Shown piece after piece: positions 2,303 to 45,532 of a DNA stretch of 64,000 bases (positions within the stretch are counted from its first letter, which is position 1; each line of letters begins with the position of its first letter). The position numbers were made by a program, and so were the translations under genes. The notes under the pieces are model-generated. The model saw only the letters and a list, made by a program, of their open reading frames with translations, did no database searches and was not told the origin of the DNA. The DNA is from Vulcanimicrobiota bacterium (lineage in GTDB: Bacteria; Vulcanimicrobiota; Vulcanimicrobiia; Eremiobacterales; Eremiobacteraceae), in NCBI GenBank assembly GCA_963805945.1, contig CAWDVP010000002.1, positions 544,001-608,000 on the forward strand. Direction: 5' to 3'.

Positions 2303-2432
2303 AACAAAAAAAGCCCGCGTGCTGCAGGCTACCCTCAAAGACAAAGCGTGTGCTTGTGATTGCGGCCTTCGTCTTTGTGCGACCGGACTGGCAGCCGGAT
2401 GGCGCCGTACGGTGCGAAGGGTAGTCGTTTAG
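2303..2432 (-). promoter_or_regulatory. Structured 5' leader with intrinsic terminator (putative L20-leader attenuator)
   Basis: Minus-strand hairpin AGCCTGC-AGCAC-GCGGGCT followed by a T7 run upstream of infC; CTACCCT...AGGGTAG long-range pairing. Confidence 0.6.
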
Positions 2433-2441
2433 TGCCCCCGG

Positions 2442-2471
2442 ATTATATCAGGCAGCGCGTCGAACCGTCAA
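2442..2471 (-). promoter_or_regulatory. Sigma70-type promoter of the infC-rpmI-rplT operon
   Basis: TTGACG-18 nt-TATAAT with TG extension. Confidence 0.75.
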
Positions 2472-2517: not shown

Positions 2518-2880
2518 TCACTCGCTTAGGATCTTGTTCGACCACTCCACCAAAGCGACGAGAGTCGCCGGCGTCGCGAACGTCGCGTTCTTACCGGCCA
2601 GATCCGCTTGTTCGACCCCACGGGCCTTCGAGCAAGCGGTTCAGACATGGATCGGGATCTTGAGGCCGATCGTGCGGACGAGGACCTCGCGCAGCGGCGG
2701 CCAGCCGATCGGCTGAATCGTGTCTGCCACCGCCGTGCGCATGAGCGACACGGCCTCGCCCAAGAGGAAGATCTGGACCTCGTTGCCGGATTCGGCGAAC
2801 GCGTTGGCGTGGAGAAAGCCGAACGCGGCTTTGGTGTGGTCGTCGGCGCCCCACGCGCTCTTGATCAAGACCTTGCTCAC
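2518..2880 (-). CDS. DsrE family selenoprotein (UxxC motif, Sec at UGA 2641-2643), 120 aa
   Basis: DsrE N-terminus (IFLLGEAV). The in-frame TGA sits at the conserved Cys position and the frame continues as TACSKARGVEQADLAGKNATFATPATLVALVEWSNKILSE, completing the fold. Confidence 0.85.
2604..2643 (-). promoter_or_regulatory. Bacterial SECIS-like hairpin
   Basis: mRNA UGA-A-CCGCUUG-C-UCGA-AGG-CCC-GUG-GGG-UCGA-A-CAAGCGG; G-initiated apical loop 19 nt after the UGA. Confidence 0.7.
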
Positions 2881-3242
2881 GATGTCGTCACCTTGGCTTC
2901 TCCGCCGCGCGGACCCCAGAAGATCACCCAGGTGGCGAAGTCGTCGCTGAAATGCTCGAAGCGATGCGCGACGCCCGCCGGCACGAACAGCACATCGTGC
3001 GGGCCGAACTCGCGCCGGCTCTCGCCGTTACGGAACCAGCCGTGCCCCGAGATGATGACGTAGAGCTCGTCTCTGCCGTGCGGCGTTTGCGGATCGTCGC
3101 CGCGCGGGGCGTAGTACTCGAGCTCCATCGTGCCGTGCGCCATGACGTGCACGGAGATGTCGTCGGTGAGCGGCGTCGCGGCAGCCGCCGCCGCGGTCGC
3201 GTGGTCCGAGCTTCGCTCGGGCACCATAGGCTCAGGCTCCAT
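2877..3242 (-). CDS. Cupin domain protein
   Basis: QTPHGRDELYVIISG...FVPAGVAHRF cupin motifs; stop overlaps the DsrE start (GTGA). Confidence 0.88.
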   Translation of the reverse strand: MEPEPMVPERSSDHATAAAAAATPLTDDISVHVMAHGTMELEYYAPRGDDPQTPHGRDELYVIISGHGWFRNGESRREFGPHDVLFVPAGVAHRFEHFSDDFATWVIFWGPRGGEAKVTTS

Positions 3243-3367
3243 GCCGATGCGTTCGCCGGTGCGCCGCCGCACACTCTACAGCGCAGGCGAGCCCTGTCCA
3301 CAGCGCGAAAAACCACCCGGCAGCCCCTTATAGTAAGGATAGAAGGCGCGCGAAGGGACACCGATTC

Positions 3368-5075
<1,708 letters not shown>

Positions 5076-5078
5076 AGC

Positions 5079-5486
5079 ATGGCGCGCCCGATCCGCATCC
5101 TTGTCGCCAAAGCCGGTCTTGACGGTCACGATCGCGGGGCGAAGGTCATCGCCCGCGCGCTCCGCGACGCCGGCTGCGAGGTGATCTACACCGGCCTGCA
5201 CCAGACGCCCGAGCAGGTCGTCGAGGCCGCGATCCAAGAGGACGTCGACGGCATCGGTCTCTCGATCTTGTCGGGCGCGCACGGCACGCTGTTCCCTCGC
5301 ATCAAGCAGTTGCTCGATGAGGCGAAAGCGAGCGACATCGTGCTCTTCGGCGGCGGCACGATCCCGAACGAGGACATCCAGCCGCTGCTCGACGCCGGCG
5401 TCGCCGCGGTGTTCACGCCGGGCACGCCGATGGCGACCATCGTCGACTTCGTGCGCCGCGAATGCGGCAAGCGAGTCGAAGCATAG
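5079..5486 (+). CDS. icmB: Acyl-CoA mutase small subunit, cobalamin-binding
   Basis: [15 protein letters not shown] (DxHxxG), [15 protein letters not shown]. Confidence 0.9.
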
Positions 5487-5518
5487 GTAAGGACGACAGC
5501 ACTCTGAGGGCGCCGCAC

Positions 5519-7013
5519 GTGAGAGTGCGGTTTGCGCCCAGCCCGACCGGCTATCTGCACGTGGGCGGCGCGCGCACCGCGCTCTTCAATTGGCTCTTCG
5601 CCCGTCATAACGGCGGTGAGTTCGTGTTGCGCGTCGAGGACACCGACGCGACGCGCTACTCCGACGAATACGTCGACGCGATCTATCGCGCGCTGCGCTG
5701 GCTCGATCTCGACTGGGACGAAGGGCCGGACGTCGGCGGGCCGTTCGGGCCGTATCGCCAGCGCGAGCGCATCGCCTCGCATCGCGCGGCGGCGCAGGAG
5801 CTGATGGCGCGCGGCGCGGCTTATGAATGTTTTTGCGGCCCGCGCGCCGTCGAAGAACCGGCGGAAGGCGATGACGCGCCCGAAACGGAGACGGCTGCCG
5901 CGCCGGAGCGCATGACTTGCAAGTGCGCGGTCCTTGATCAGAAGAAGCGCGAGGAGCTGCGCGGTCAGGGCATCCGGCCGGCGCTCCGCATGCGCGTCGA
6001 CCCCACGCGCGCGATCCTGGTGGACGACATGGTGCGCGGGAAGGTGGAGTTCCCGGCGGGCTCGCTCGACGATTTCATCATCGTCAAGAGCGACGGCGGC
6101 CCGCTCTACAATTTCGCGGTCGACGGTCGACGATCACGCGATGGAGATCTCGCACGTCATCCGCGGCGAAGAGCATCTCGCGAACACGCCCAAGCAGCTG
6201 CTCATCTACGAGGCGCTGGGCTGGCAGCCGCCGCGCTTCGCGCACATCCCGATCATCCTCAACGAAGCGCGCCGCAAGCTGAGCAAGCGCGACGGCGCGA
6301 CCTTCGTCAACGAATACGAGGATATGGGCTACCTGCCCGACGCGCTCGACAACTTCTTGGCGCTGCTGGGCTGGTCGCCCGGCGGCAACCGTGAGCTGAT
6401 GACGCGCGAGGAGATGATCCGCGACTTCACCATCGAGGGCGTCGTCAAGCACGCCGCGATCTTCGACCACGCCAAGCTCGCGTGGATGAACAAAGAGTAC
6501 TTGAAGGCGCTGCCGCCGCAGGAGCTGGCGCAGCGCGTCGCCGCGCTGCTCGCGACGCGCACGCCGCCGCCAGACCGCATCGACGAGGCGCACGTCGCGC
6601 GCGTCACCGCGTTGCTGCAGGAGCGGGCGCGGACCGTCGTCGAGATCGCCGATCAGGGCGCATATTTCTTCACGCGCGGTCCGGTCGAGCCGGCGCCCGA
6701 AGCGCTCGCGAAGTACTGCGCGACGCCGGAGGCCCTCGAGCGTCTACGAGAGGTGCGGATTGCACTTGCTGGAGCGGTCGACTTCGCGTCGACCGACATA
6801 GAAGTCGCCATTCGAGGCCTCGCCGAGCGGTCGGGCCACAAGGCCGCTGCGTTCATCCATCCTCTGCGCGTGGCGCTCACCGGTCAATCGGTGAGCCCCG
6901 GCATCTTCGAGGTCACGAGCATCCTGGGGCGCGAGGTCGCGCTCGCGCGCATCGACGCGCTGCTCGCGCGGCTGCAGACCTCGCCCGCCGTCGCGGCGAA
7001 GGGCGGGTCATGA
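5519..7013 (+). CDS. gltX: Glutamate--tRNA ligase (frameshift near 6121)
   Basis: RVRFAPSPTGYLHVGGARTAL, DDHAMEISHVIRGEEHLANT, KLSKR. Confidence 0.96.
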
Positions 7014-8365
7014 GCACCGCGCGCGCGATCATATTGGCGGCAGGCAAAGGCACGCGCATGAAGAGCCGTGTGCCGAAGGTGCTGCACGAGCTGTGCGGCC
7101 GCACGATGTTCGAGCACGTGCTCCACGCTGTCAGGGATGCCGGCATCAGCGACATCCTCGCCGTGGTGAACGCCGATCTGCGCGCCCCGATCGAGGCGTT
7201 CGGCGTGCGCACGCTCGTGCAAGAGCCGCAGAACGGCACCGGTCACGCAGCGCAACTCGCGATGGCAGCGCTCGCGGGCGATGATCCCGTGCTCATCGTC
7301 AGCGCGGACATGCCGCTGCTGCCGGCGCGAACTGCTCGCGTCGGTCGTCGGCGTTCGAGGCACAACCGGCGCCGCCGCCGCGCTCGTCACCGCCGACGTG
7401 CCGCTGCCGACCGCATTCGGCAGGATCGTGCGCTCGCGCGGCTCGGTCGCGCGCATCGTCGAGCACGCGGACGCGACGCCGCAAGAGCGTCTGGTCGACA
7501 GAAGTGAACGCGGGCGTCTACTGCTTCGACGCGCCGTCGCTGCGCACGTATCTCGCGGGCTTGAGCGCCGCCAACGCGCAGAAGGAGCTCTATCTCACCG
7601 ACTGCATCGAGGCGGCGGTCGAGGCAGGCGCGCTCGTCGAGGCGGTCACCGCCAAGAATCATCGCGACGTCATCGGGGTCAACACTCGCGTCGACCTCGC
7701 GCTGGCGCGCGCGATCATGCAGCGGCGCATCCTGCGCGCGCACATGCTCGCGGGGGTGACGATCGTCGACCCTATGACGGCCTACGTCGACGCCGACGTC
7801 GAACTCGCCCCCGATGTCGCGTTGCTGCCGCAGACCCACGTGCTTGGCACCAGCCGCGTGGGGCGCGGTGCGCGCATCGGACCCGAACACGAGCGTCATC
7901 AACGCCGAGATCGGCGAGGGCGCGGTCATCACGTATTCAGTGGTGCGTGACTCGAAGATCGGCGAGGGCGCGACGCTCGGCCCGTTCGCGCACGTGCGCG
8001 GTGGTACGGAGATCGCGGCGGGCGCGCACATCGGCAACTTCGTCGAGCTCAAGAACACGAAGATGGGCCGCGGTGCGAAGGCGAGCCATCTGTCGTACCT
8101 CGGCGACGCTGAGATCGGCGAGAACGCGAACATCGGCGCGGGCACGATCACGTGCAACTACGACGGCAACCGCAAGAACAAGACGAAGATCGGCGCACGC
8201 GCCTTCATCGGCTCGAACACCTCACTTGTCGCGCCGGTGGAAATCGGTGAAGATGCATTGACCGGCGCTGGCGCGGTCGTCACGCACGACGTGCCGCCCG
8301 GCGGACGGGTCGCCGGCAATCCCGCTCGTCCGCTGCGCGATAAGGAGCGTTCCGACACGCCATGA
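7010..8365 (+). CDS. glmU: Bifunctional UDP-GlcNAc pyrophosphorylase/acetyltransferase (frameshifts near 7325, 7500 and 7885)
   Basis: [51 protein letters not shown]. Confidence 0.96.
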
Positions 8366-25171: not shown

Positions 25172-26869
25172 CTACATCACGTCGGGAGCGGAAACGCCCA
25201 GCAGTCCGAGCGCTGAGGCCAACACCGTCTTGCTCGCCAGGCATAGCGACAGGCGCGCGCTCGTGAGCGCTTCGTCGTCGCTCAACACCACGCACTCGGT
25301 GTAGAAGCTGTGGAAATCGGTCGCGAGATCGCGCGCGTATTCGGCGAGGCGATGCGGTGCGCGCGCTTTGGCGGCGTCGGCCACGGTGCGTTCGAAATCC
25401 GCGAGCCGCCGCACGAGCGCGATCTCGCCGGGGTGGCCGACCAGCGCGAGATCGGCGCCTTGCCGCGCGCGCTCTAGCAGCGGTCCCCTCCCTGATTCCT
25501 GCGCGCGGCGCAGGATCGACGCGATGCGCGCGTGCCCGTACTGGACGTAGTAGACCGGATTTGCCGACGATTGCTCCACCGCCAGCGCGAGGTCGAACAC
25601 GAGCTGCGACTCCGGCGCGCGGTTGATGAAGAAGAAACGCGCGGCGTCCTTGCCGACCTCGTCGACCACCTCGCGCAAGGTGACGATCGCGCCGGCGCGC
25701 TTGCTCATCGCCACGCTCTCGTCGCCGCGCTTGAGGGCCACCTGTTGCGCGATGAGCACCTCGAGCGCGCCGGGATGGCCGAGCGCCGCGGCGATCGCCT
25801 TGATGCGCGCGATGTAGCCGTGGTGATCCGGCCCGAGGACGTCGATGAGATGGCGGTTGCCGCGTTCGAACTTGTCACGGTGGTACGCCGCGTCCGGCGC
25901 GATGTAGGTCGGCCGGCCGTCGCTGCGGCGCAGCACGCGATCCTTGTCGTCGCCGAACTCGGTGGAGCGCAGCCACACGGCGCCGTCCTGCTCGTAGGCG
26001 ACGCCGCGCGAGACCAGCCAGCTCACGACCTCATCGACCTTGCCGCCGTCGTGGAGGGTCGACTCGAAGAACCAGCGGTCGAAGACGACGCCGAAGCGCT
26101 CGAGATCCTCGCGCTGCTGCGCGACGATGGTGTCGCGGCCGAACGTCGCGAGCGCTTTTCGGCGCTCGTCAGGGTCGGCGCGCAGCCACCGGTCGCCGTC
26201 GCGTTTCTTGAGCAGTTCGGCGACGTCGATGAGATCGTCGCCCCGATAGCCGTCTTTCGGGATCTCCGCCTGCTCGCCGAACAACTCGGCGTAGCGCGCG
26301 AAGATCGAATCGGCGAGCAGGTCCATCTGGGCGCCGGCGTCGTTGACATACGTCTCGGTGTTGACCGTCGCGCCGGCGAACCGCAGCATCGCCGCGAGCG
26401 TCGCGCCGAGCGAGCTCGAGCGGCCCTGGACGACGTTGAGCGGGCCGGTCGGATTGGCCGACACGAACTCGAGCAAGACCGGTCCGTACGACGCGAGCGC
26501 GTCCGAGCGGCCGAACGCATCGCCTGTTTCGAGCGCCTCGCGCACGACGTCGGCCCAGAACGCCGGGGCCATGCGCAGATTGATGAAACCAGGCGGCTTG
26601 ACTTCGAGCGACGCGACGCCGGTCATCCGTGCGACGCCGTCAGCGGCGACGGCGCGCGCGACGTCGAGCGGGTTGCGGTTCCACAGCTTGCCTGCTGCGA
26701 GCGCGGCTGCCGTCGCGAAATCGCCATGCGCAGGGTCGCGAGTCGGCCCGAGGGCGACGGGCGGCGCGGTCTTCGGGTCGGCGCCGAACTCCCCGGCCGC
26801 CGACACGAAGCGTGCCTGCAGCTCGGTCTCGAACGCGGCAAGCGACTGCGCATAACGCGTCGTCTTCAT
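25172..26869 (-). CDS. argS: Arginine--tRNA ligase
   Basis: HGDFAT, EFVSANPTGPL, GPDHHGY, MSKRAG, NPVYYVQYGHARI. Confidence 0.97.
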   Translation of the reverse strand: MKTTRYAQSLAAFETELQARFVSAAGEFGADPKTAPPVALGPTRDPAHGDFATAAALAAGKLWNRNPLDVARAVAADGVARMTGVASLEVKPPGFINLRMAPAFWADVVREALETGDAFGRSDALASYGPVLLEFVSANPTGPLNVVQGRSSSLGATLAAMLRFAGATVNTETYVNDAGAQMDLLADSIFARYAELFGEQAEIPKDGYRGDDLIDVAELLKKRDGDRWLRADPDERRKALATFGRDTIVAQQREDLERFGVVFDRWFFESTLHDGGKVDEVVSWLVSRGVAYEQDGAVWLRSTEFGDDKDRVLRRSDGRPTYIAPDAAYHRDKFERGNRHLIDVLGPDHHGYIARIKAIAAALGHPGALEVLIAQQVALKRGDESVAMSKRAGAIVTLREVVDEVGKDAARFFFINRAPESQLVFDLALAVEQSSANPVYYVQYGHARIASILRRAQESGRGPLLERARQGADLALVGHPGEIALVRRLADFERTVADAAKARAPHRLAEYARDLATDFHSFYTECVVLSDDEALTSARLSLCLASKTVLASALGLLGVSAPDVM

Positions 26870-26920
26870 GACGGGTGCTTAGGAAGATGCGCGGAGCCGA
26901 CCTTCGCCCGCTCGCGGCCG

Positions 26921-43413: not shown

Positions 43414-44841
43414 CTATTCCGGGATCAGCTGCCAGCCCGGTTTGGCCTGCAGCTTCCACAAGAACGCCGAGTGCAGGGCGCGCTTGGTCCACGCGCCCGC
43501 GAGACCGATATCGAGATCGCACAACGCAAGATCGCGTCCACGCTCGGGATAGCGTTGGAAGTCCCGCACCACCGGCGTCATGATGATCGACGCCGCTGAG
43601 CCGTTCCATATCGACTTGCCCATCGACGCGATGCAGGCGGCGGGGATCTCCGACATGCGGGCATGGTGGGTCGGCGCCTTGCCGGCGACCCGTTCCGCGA
43701 TGTTCTGCGCGACCGTGCGCCCCATGATGCCCGACACCATGCCGGTTCTCGGCGGGGTCGCCGTGATGGCCAGACCGCTAGCCGCTTTCTTGCCCTTCGA
43801 GATCGGATGCGGCGGCGCGAAGGCGATGCCGGCCGCGTAGACGTTGTCGTAGTGCGGCGACACGTAGGTCGCCGGCCAATCCGCGGCGCGGTAGTCGGCG
43901 TATTGCCGCGGCGTGTAATCGGCGTCCACGCGCATGAACCCGTTCGGCAGCGTCATCTTCTCGCCGAGATCGCCGCCGTCGCTTGCGACGTACTTGACCG
44001 GGATGCCGCGGAACTGCGGGATCAGCATCGCCAGATCGTACTCGATCGTGCCCGGATCCTCGCCGATCTGCTCGTAATGCAGCACGCCGGGCTCGACCTT
44101 GGTGACGGCTGCCGCGACCTTCGCGATGATGCGCGCCTCGTCGAGCAGCATGCGCACCATGCCGGCGCCGGTCACGAGGATTCCGCGCTTGATCGCCTCG
44201 ATGCCATCGACGCCGAAATCGCCGGGTTCCGGTTCGTTGGTGATCCACACGAGATCGGCGTTGTCGCGCAGCCCGCGCGCGCGCAGATCCGCGTCGACGT
44301 TCATCAGATATTCGAAAGCGGCGCCTTCGCACGTGGCCGACGGGTGGCCGACGCCGACGACGATCCGCCGCTTCTTGCCCGCCTTGAGATCCCGGACAAT
44401 CGCGAGATACTTATCGCGGGCGTCGATCGCATGCTCGACCGAGCACACGCTGGTCGTGTTGCCGGTCGCGGGGCCAAGCCCGGGTGTACCTTCGAAGTTC
44501 AGGTACGGTCCGGTCGCGTTGAGCAGGTATTCGTACGAGAGCGTCCGCTCCTCGCCGGATGCGCTCGTCACGATGACCTGCCGGTCATCGGGCTTGATAG
44601 TCGTGGCTCGTCCATCGACGTAAGTGATGCCGAGCTTCTCGTAGACCGGAGCGAGCTCGAAATGCACCTCGTCCGGCGCCATGGTGCCGGTTCCCACCCA
44701 GATCAGGCTCGGAAACCAGGTGAAGCGATTGCGCGGCGAGACGACGGTGACGTCGGCGGTGTCGTGGACGAGCGTCGAGAGGTGCAGCGCGGCGGTGTGT
44801 CCGGCAAAACCGGCGCCGAGGATCACGATGCGCGGTTTCAT
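43414..44841 (-). CDS. Sulfide:quinone oxidoreductase-like FAD-dependent oxidoreductase
   Basis: ILGAGFAG, FPSLIWV, SVC, TCEGAAFE, YAAGIA, PPRTG, ACIA. Confidence 0.8.
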   Translation of the reverse strand: MKPRIVILGAGFAGHTAALHLSTLVHDTADVTVVSPRNRFTWFPSLIWVGTGTMAPDEVHFELAPVYEKLGITYVDGRATTIKPDDRQVIVTSASGEERTLSYEYLLNATGPYLNFEGTPGLGPATGNTTSVCSVEHAIDARDKYLAIVRDLKAGKKRRIVVGVGHPSATCEGAAFEYLMNVDADLRARGLRDNADLVWITNEPEPGDFGVDGIEAIKRGILVTGAGMVRMLLDEARIIAKVAAAVTKVEPGVLHYEQIGEDPGTIEYDLAMLIPQFRGIPVKYVASDGGDLGEKMTLPNGFMRVDADYTPRQYADYRAADWPATYVSPHYDNVYAAGIAFAPPHPISKGKKAASGLAITATPPRTGMVSGIMGRTVAQNIAERVAGKAPTHHARMSEIPAACIASMGKSIWNGSAASIIMTPVVRDFQRYPERGRDLALCDLDIGLAGAWTKRALHSAFLWKLQAKPGWQLIPE

Positions 44842-44914
44842 GTGATAACCGTACATCGTTTGAGCCGCAATCGTGAGAAGAAGCCGTGAAGGACGTACCC
44901 CCGTGGTACGTGCA

Positions 44915-45532
44915 TCACGGGACGATAGGCGAACCCTCGATCGGCCACGGATTATGGATCTTCATGCGCCGCATGTCCGGCGGGTAGGTCGTGGTATGTA
45001 CTTGCAGCCAATCCTCGGAGAGCACGGCGAGGTACTCGAAATTCTCCCACAGCGCATCGTCACTGTCAGCCTCACGGAAGAACGCCGTCAGCGGCTCGAG
45101 ACGGCGCCATAGACCGAGCAGCGGGCTGCAGAAACCCTCCACGAAGATCGTCTTGTCGATGATGCCGTTGCGGACGAGAACGCCTAGCTCTTCGTACGTG
45201 TTCGCGGAGGCGACGACCGCAGCACGCAGCTCGGCGTGTTTCGGATCGGCCGAGGGCGTCGCCCCGCGCGCCAGCGCCAACCAATAGCCGCGAAAGGCGG
45301 GATCCTCGGCGGCCGATGCGAGCTGCGCGCCGATAAGGTCCGTGGCGGCGCGGAAAGCGGGGCCGTTGATGACCTGCGTGATGTTGAGGATGGCGTTGAT
45401 CTGATTTCCCGCGTGCAGGTGACGCAGCTGGACCAGCGCCACCACGGCGGTCGCACCGATGATCGCGACCGTCGCGAATGTACCGAGGATGCTGAGCTGC
45501 TCGAGCGACATGGCGGCCTCCGACGTCGACAT
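44915..45532 (-). CDS. DUF4760-like membrane-anchored hypothetical protein
   Basis: N-terminal TM ...ALVQLRHLHAGNQI; NTYEELGVLVRNGIID; WENFEYLA. Confidence 0.7.
   Translation of the reverse strand: MSTSEAAMSLEQLSILGTFATVAIIGATAVVALVQLRHLHAGNQINAILNITQVINGPAFRAATDLIGAQLASAAEDPAFRGYWLALARGATPSADPKHAELRAAVVASANTYEELGVLVRNGIIDKTIFVEGFCSPLLGLWRRLEPLTAFFREADSDDALWENFEYLAVLSEDWLQVHTTTYPPDMRRMKIHNPWPIEGSPIVP

Follow-up and report, generated by a model that had tools for sequence, protein, structure and literature searches.

Several DsrE-like proteins that carry selenocysteine (Sec) or are otherwise tied to selenium have been described. According to the available text of the sources, the Sargasso Sea study of 2005 (PMC1088965) reported a DsrE-like family (Pfam02635) with a UXXC motif from two sequences and drew its SECIS element in Figure 3, the study of bacterial genomes of 2006 (PMC1794560) found a DsrE-like selenoprotein in Desulfovibrio vulgaris, the GOS study of 2008 (PMC2398784) distinguished the families 'DsrE 1' and 'DsrE 2' with 2 and 19 Sec sequences, and a review of 2026 (PMC13188914) gives the DsrE-like selenoprotein family a row of its table. 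Two further proteins are related by domain: YedF, which combines a DsrE-like domain with a CGxC motif and was tied to selenium metabolism by comparative genomics (PMC5322559, in the portion available), and SaoD, a DsrE-like protein that the accessible part of its preprint describes as never being a selenoprotein (bioRxiv 10.1101/2022.07.06.499078).

Here, we analysed a DsrE-like gene in a window of 64 kb (the whole stretch of 64,000 nucleotides), whose reading frame is interrupted by a UGA at codon 80 (UGA80). This UGA very probably encodes Sec, which would make the locus a genuine DsrE/YchN-like selenoprotein gene with the motif U80-T-A-C83. We favour this reading because the comparative signal is decisive, i.e. 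the relatives that stop at the same residue and the pairing of the UGA with Cys in homologues, and not the hairpin that follows the UGA. A stop that is kept at the position of a catalytic Cys across many relatives is the standard signature of Sec.

By direct reading of the sequence and the list of open reading frames (ORFs), the dsrE-like gene lies on the minus strand between a cupin gene and infC. Its 79-codon ORF (2880..2644) begins with GTG and ends in ...GLKIPIHV, immediately before the TGA at 2643..2641. Past this TGA the frame continues for 40 codons (TACSKARG..., in full TACSKARGVEQADLAGKNATFATPATLVALVEWSNKILSE) up to a second TGA (2520..2518; Table 1). The TGA stop of the cupin gene (2879..2877) and the GTG start of the dsrE-like gene (2880..2878) overlap as GTGA. 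The start of the cupin gene is ambiguous (GTG at 3272 or a more internal ATG), and no NCBIfam family scored above its cutoff with the product. The stretch from the DsrE stop to infC contains two further sites, a strong promoter-like one that agrees with 11 of 12 consensus positions (2471..2442 (-)) and a hairpin that resembles a terminator and has a T-run (2330..2312 (-)). Together (2312-2471) they might act as leader or attenuator for the operon infC-rpmI-rplT.

Table 1. Features of the cupin-dsrE locus in window coordinates.
Feature	Position	Strand	Details and basis
DsrE/YchN-like selenoprotein, full-length CDS	2521..2880	(-)	120 codons; GTG 2880..2878; putative Sec80, Cys83; translation with TGA=U
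In-frame TGA, codon 80, probably read as selenocysteine	2641..2643	(-)	Cys-aligned in homologues; N-terminal ORFs of relatives stop before this codon
TGC of Cys83, putative resolving Cys of the U-T-A-C motif	2632..2634	(-)	sequence; Cys in 119/120 aligned rows
SECIS-like hairpin	2604..2639	(-)	folding; 7-bp lower, 3-bp middle and 4-bp apical stem, GUG loop 2621..2619
True stop, again TGA	2518..2520	(-)	homologues finish at the aligned ...SE/TE C-terminus
Shine-Dalgarno-like AGGTGA, 7 nt 5' of the GTG start	2888..2893	(-)	direct sequence reading
Upstream cupin gene	2877..3272	(-)	ORF list; Pfam Cupin_2 33.1 bits vs cutoff 27.2
Promoter-like site 5' of the cupin-dsrE pair	3273..3300	(-)	consensus scan only, 9/12 positions

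Which residue do homologues carry at the position of the TGA? A protein search with the read-through product gave 2876 matches, and the 120 listed ones were aligned. One of these rows is the gene's own 79-aa stump (P0005); the other 119 are full-length homologues of 119-185 aa with 57-66% identity over 96-99% of the query. At position 80, 117 of the 119 carry Cys, one Trp (P0003) and one Arg (P0020), while position 83 is Cys in all 119. Therefore, the TGA falls on the first Cys of the CxxC motif. Over the 40 residues encoded behind the TGA, identity to the 119 full-length homologues is 45-68% (mean 52%), and this downstream homology together with the Cys/TGA pairing is far beyond chance. The residue that follows position 80 is G in 117 of the 119 homologues and T in the window protein. 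Two longer C-terminal fragments that cross position 80, found in a separate search with the last 40 residues, carry W (P0372) and R (P0362). The codons for W and for R are both one base away from TGA, and the W in P0003 and P0372 could be the translation of a TGA by a pipeline under another genetic code or a real substitution. As W or R occurs in four relatives in total, residue 80 is not strictly required everywhere.

The relatives closest to the window gene share its stop. A second search, with the N-terminal 79 residues only and a match length of 43-139 aa, returned 1754 matches at E <= 1e-8, the best 120 of which show 70-100% identity and are closer to the query than any Cys form. Among these best 120, 119 (the own entry included) end in ...H followed by V, I, A or L, precisely at the residue that precedes the TGA; 118 clusters besides the own one thus stop at the same residue, and the closest relatives are 70-90% identical. 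The single exception is P0210, which has a Cys there and continues. Most of the 119 rows that end there are 78 aa (55), 79 aa (53) or 80 aa (5) long, the others being N-terminally extended. Two of the relatives, P0122 and P0123, end at the same residue as the window stump at 89-90% identity. The truncated forms come from several independent data sources, and the three with organism names belong to Methylomirabilota, Dehalococcoidia and Ktedonobacterales MAGs. DsrE-like proteins of 78-79 aa also make up ESM Atlas clusters of 51-75 members.

The other half of the gene recurs separately. The search of 1.84 billion cluster representatives with the C-terminal 40 residues found 34 matches, which include orphan ORFs of 26-49 aa that begin no more than about 15 residues past position 80: P0363 at residue 81, P0368 at 82, P0366 and P0381 at about 85, and also P0367, P0373 and P0390. 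Judged by where the proteins end, the stop at codon 80 with conserved coding sequence behind it appears to be a shared and old feature of this gene group. A tree of the N-terminal 79 residues was calculated from 119 stop-type rows (118 truncated ones and the query) and 120 full-length rows, with the query duplicate P0005 left out and P0210 labelled full-length. One split unites all 119 stop-type rows with P0002, P0003 and P0210. Its support is only 0.205, too low to conclude that the Sec forms are monophyletic. A scan of genome contigs with P0001 produced one locus (L001, 8184-8270), a false positive that lies off-frame of a polynucleotide phosphorylase gene in a Terrimicrobiaceae MAG, and the tblastn search against plasmids yielded a single uninformative match of 33% identity from Paracoccus.

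Most of what a sequence-only reading of the same DNA had claimed is borne out by these results, and everything it stated about the letters themselves proved correct. It had placed the end of the 79-aa ORF at a TGA on the first Cys of a CxxC motif, and the pairing it expected between this UGA and Cys in homologues was found once they were aligned. The predicted truncation by gene callers is seen in the database itself, where the window gene is present as the 79-aa stump P0005 beside the 118 other same-stop clusters. The proposed coupling to a cupin gene agrees with the GTGA overlap of stop and start, and the continuation of the frame for 40 codons to a DsrE C-terminus agrees with the coverage of the Pfam profile described below. 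The central claim, namely that the gene encodes a DsrE-superfamily selenoprotein whose motif is UxxC, is supported by the pairing, the read-through fold and the same-stop relatives.

The same reading had stressed a SECIS-like hairpin right after the UGA, with a G-initiated loop 19 nt downstream, and folding confirms its geometry. The lower stem CCGCUUG/CAAGCGG begins 1 nt past the UGA and is followed by a middle stem UCG/CGA and by an apical stem GCCC/GGGU that closes the GUG loop, which starts 19 nt past the UGA. The minimum free energy (MFE) comes to -24.2 kcal/mol when 66 nt are folded and to -19.7 kcal/mol when the fold is confined to the 60 nt that follow the UGA. The bSECIS consensus, as given in the Fig. 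2 legend of the available review text (PMC13188914), comprises a loop of 3-9 nt with a G in its first two positions, an upper stem of 4-16 bp, a distance of 16-37 nt from the UGA and an MFE <= -7.5 kcal/mol, and the hairpin at 2604..2639 falls within all four of these published limits. Such a fold is statistically unexceptional in this window of 66.6% G+C. Against dinucleotide shuffles the hairpin has z = -1.82, with 11 of 200 shuffles matching its stability; a simplified SECIS test is passed by 291 of the 1535 TGA triplets in the window, 62 of which also equal the stability of the hairpin over 45 nt. When the same peptide was recoded synonymously 3000 times, 1254 recodings were as stable and 667 passed the SECIS model. 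Rfam reported nothing at gathering thresholds in the whole window and, around the site, only a chance lncRNA match (E 9.7).

Thus, the hairpin is not above background, and we dropped it as independent evidence. It is compatible with Sec insertion and is not evidence for it. Of the earlier claim the SECIS-like form of the hairpin stands, and its weight as an argument of its own does not: in a genome of 66.6% G+C a SECIS-consensus hairpin weighs little, and it is the comparative signal that does the work. A separate observation concerns the orphan fragments P0391 and P0395, which begin in a shifted frame with EGPW (window 2615-2626 (-)). These four residues require the nucleotides GAAGGCCCGUGG, which are identical to the hairpin apex and include the U of the Arg codon CGU, i.e. 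the U of the loop. CGU is a rare codon in G+C-rich genomes. The coincidence hints at conservation at the nucleotide level, as seen in two sequences only.

The Sec reading predicts Sec machinery in this Eremiobacterota-like organism and would imply Sec usage there, as the sequence-only reading had also proposed. Within the 64 kb analysed of the 717-kb contig, no match to selA, selB or selD was found among the 65 ORFs scanned with NCBIfam, and no tRNA-Sec, tRNA-Val being the only tRNA found. A crude screen of the window for further selenoproteins, which looked for an in-frame TGA flanked on either side by high GC3, yielded two matches, both trivial; this screen is weak because its thresholds missed the DsrE gene itself. 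Elsewhere in the window, a 515-codon ORF with a TAG stop (43417-44961 (-)) shows a weak match of 57.6 bits, against a cutoff of 525, to 'type III sulfide quinone reductase, selenoprotein subtype' of NCBIfam over profile positions 2-252 of 406, and its product is probably merely a distant flavoprotein. As to the host, the ArgS protein encoded at 25175-26878 (-) is 64-78% identical to proteins of Candidatus Eremiobacteraeota, Eremiobacteraceae and Tumulicola, 92% to a metagenome protein and 78% to one of Candidatus Binatus, so that the DNA probably derives from Eremiobacterota (WPS-2) or a close neighbour of this phylum. A literature search of limited coverage on Eremiobacter/WPS-2 and selenocysteine found no paper that links the phylum and Sec.

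Could UGA80 be read without Sec? Ribosomes might pass it by near-cognate insertion of Trp or Cys, or the Sec machinery might have been lost, leaving little or no full-length protein. The window without Sec machinery, the hairpin at background level and the four relatives with W or R at position 80 all fit such a scenario. Nevertheless, we consider it improbable: family, motif and position fit a published selenoprotein family, and low-level read-through leaves unexplained why the stop has been retained at the catalytic Cys in 118 other clusters.

A second explanation would attribute the TGA to faulty sequencing or assembly, or to a private nonsense mutation that recently changed a TGC or TGT Cys codon and turned the gene into a pseudogene. 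The quality of the neighbourhood speaks for it to some extent. On the plus strand, between 3368 and 8365, the genes for methylmalonyl-CoA mutase (3368-5122), gltX (5462-7013) and glmU (6482-8365) are frameshifted, with at least 3-4 frames for the N-domain of the mutase, two for gltX (switch near 6121) and three for glmU. Thus, within the next ~5 kb three housekeeping genes carry seven frameshifts or more. The sites lie outside homopolymer runs, genes past ~8.4 kb look intact, and the region 3368-8365, ~500 bp from the dsrE-like gene, has the appearance of a stretch with indel errors from the assembly, which is locally unreliable. However, the local errors are indels, while the dsrE-like gene aligns in frame throughout, and the 118 other clusters, P0122 and P0123 included, finish at the same residue. 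The common stop in the best N-terminal matches, together with the orphan C-terminal fragments, excludes an error or a private nonsense mutation for practical purposes, and we leave this explanation only a marginal probability.

The third explanation takes the 79-aa product as a real and complete protein and the downstream homology as a decaying remnant. It can point to gene callers that give 78-79-aa proteins in many data sets and to the well-populated ESM Atlas clusters. The domain and fold analysis speaks against it. The read-through protein scores 42.7 bits with Pfam DsrE (PF02635), its only Pfam match, and covers positions 11-114 of the 116 in the profile, while the stump reaches 17.5 bits over positions 11-63 and stays under the gathering cutoff of 22.7 bits. 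The AlphaFold2 model of the read-through product, built from an alignment of 42 rows, has a mean pLDDT of 95.8 and a pTM of 0.89. In this model, residue 80 ends the strand 77-80 and caps the helix 81-87, and the last 40 residues form the helices 81-87, 91-94 and 104-113 and the strands 99-102 and 116-119, so that the stump would be without two of the five strands and without three helices of the modelled fold. By domain match and model, only the read-through product, and not the stump, gives a complete DsrE/YchN fold. Taken with the 45-68% identity of the downstream residues to distant full-length homologues and their recurrence as conserved orphan fragments in relatives, this makes a complete 79-aa protein highly unlikely.

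Two simpler readings were rejected: the gene is not split, since past TGA80 the first in-frame ATG, GTG or TTG comes only ~12 codons from the end, and genetic codes 4 and 25, in which TGA is reassigned, are excluded, since TGA terminates many family-supported genes in the window, being the ordinary stop of the cupin gene, gltX, dprA, nrdR and the dsrE-like gene's own end.

If UGA80 is indeed read as Sec, how might the gene be expressed and what might its product do? The cupin-dsrE pair would be co-transcribed, probably from the promoter-like site at 3300..3273, a consensus match only. Translational coupling of both genes is visible in the sequence itself, through the overlapping GTGA and an AGGTGA that lies 7 nt before the start codon. 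At UGA80 the hairpin (2639..2604) would recruit a SelB-type factor with Sec-tRNA(Sec), and translation would run on for the 40 codons of demonstrated in-frame homology to the second TGA. The 120-aa product is predicted to fold as a DsrE/YchN alpha/beta domain with Cys83 one turn past the helix-capping Sec80. Sec or Cys at the N-terminus of a helix is the usual geometry of CxxC redox centres. From model and motif, we propose that Sec80 and Cys83 form a redox pair that alternates between its selenol/thiol and its selenenylsulfide state. The motif would thereby suggest a putative cytoplasmic redox or transfer protein for thiols, persulfides or selenium, and the candidate substrates, by family, are thiols/disulfides, persulfide sulfur or selenium species. 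The pairing with a cupin might point to a new system of two proteins that depends on Se or S.

The label 'predicted peroxiredoxin' that some relatives carry is a label of their source and not an assayed activity. Such an identity was rejected for the window protein, which has no thioredoxin-fold AhpC/TSA or Redoxin domain, only Pfam DsrE and a DsrE/YchN fold. The 79-aa entries annotated as 'hypothetical protein' or 'predicted peroxiredoxin' (at least 118 clusters) most likely correspond to the N-terminal part of a 120-aa selenoprotein that was cut short, and their annotation could be corrected.

The full-length Cys homologues ('CGAC' forms, named DsrE family protein or predicted peroxiredoxin in their sources) have their CxxC at the same position as the U-T-A-C of the window protein, and differ from it at the N-terminus. 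An extension of ~30 residues is present in 115 of 119, with an RR motif in 113 of these 115, whereas the window protein and the listed truncated forms are without it. The Cys forms therefore look Tat-exported; the NCBIfam TAT models stayed under cutoff. Going by the sequences, this contrast would place Sec and Cys forms in different compartments. Whether the Sec form is a large clade of its own, without signal peptide and presumably cytoplasmic, in soil-type lineages (Eremiobacterota here; Chloroflexota classes and Methylomirabilota for the named relatives) and apart from mostly Tat-exported Cys paralogues, is in our judgement an even call. If true, it would be a first marker of selenocysteine use in Eremiobacterota.

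Among proteins of known structure, Foldseek ranks E. coli YchN (1jx7) first, with a TM of 0.80 and E 2.6e-7, followed by the DsrE/DsrF-like 2qs7, 3mc3 and 3pnx and then by DsrEFH (2hy5) and TusBCD (2d1p), at query-normalised TM values of 0.71-0.83 across these six. The CKTC of YchN aligns with U-T-A-C. YchN carries Cys and not Sec, its structural identity to the window protein is 18%, and it is the only solved relative by sequence, with a weak match (E 0.32). Within the DsrE/DsrF superfamily, the window protein falls into the YchN-like branch, and NCBIfam has no specific model for it. TusD/DsrE of the TusBCD and DsrEFH complexes share the fold (2d1p and 2hy5, TM 0.71-0.76) and have an active-site Cys in a position comparable to U-T-A-C, a single active Cys and not a CxxC. 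The window protein scored 17 bits against the TIGR03012 equivalog, with a cutoff of 89.25, and is thus not a TusD/DsrE orthologue; no tusBC or dsrFH partner genes adjoin the dsrE-like gene. YedF consists of two domains, one SirA-like and one DsrE-like, and is not described as a selenoprotein in the available part of its source, whereas the window gene encodes a single domain.

In summary, the gene represents no new kind of biology, as publications on the family and on its UxxC motif go back to 2005. The sequence-only reading was right that DsrE-like selenoproteins exist; its description of this one as cryptic does not hold for the kind, because that kind is already published. What may be modestly new is the host lineage, the number of truncated relatives and the N-terminal contrast with the Cys forms. 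By family description, the window gene shows the defining features of the published DsrE-like family as far as the available text of its sources gives them, i.e. PF02635, Sec as the first residue of UxxC, the existence of Cys homologues, and a hairpin immediately past the UGA. The published members in these texts come from marine metagenomes and a sulfate reducer, whereas the window gene lies in a genome of 66.6% G+C whose ArgS is nearest to Eremiobacterota.
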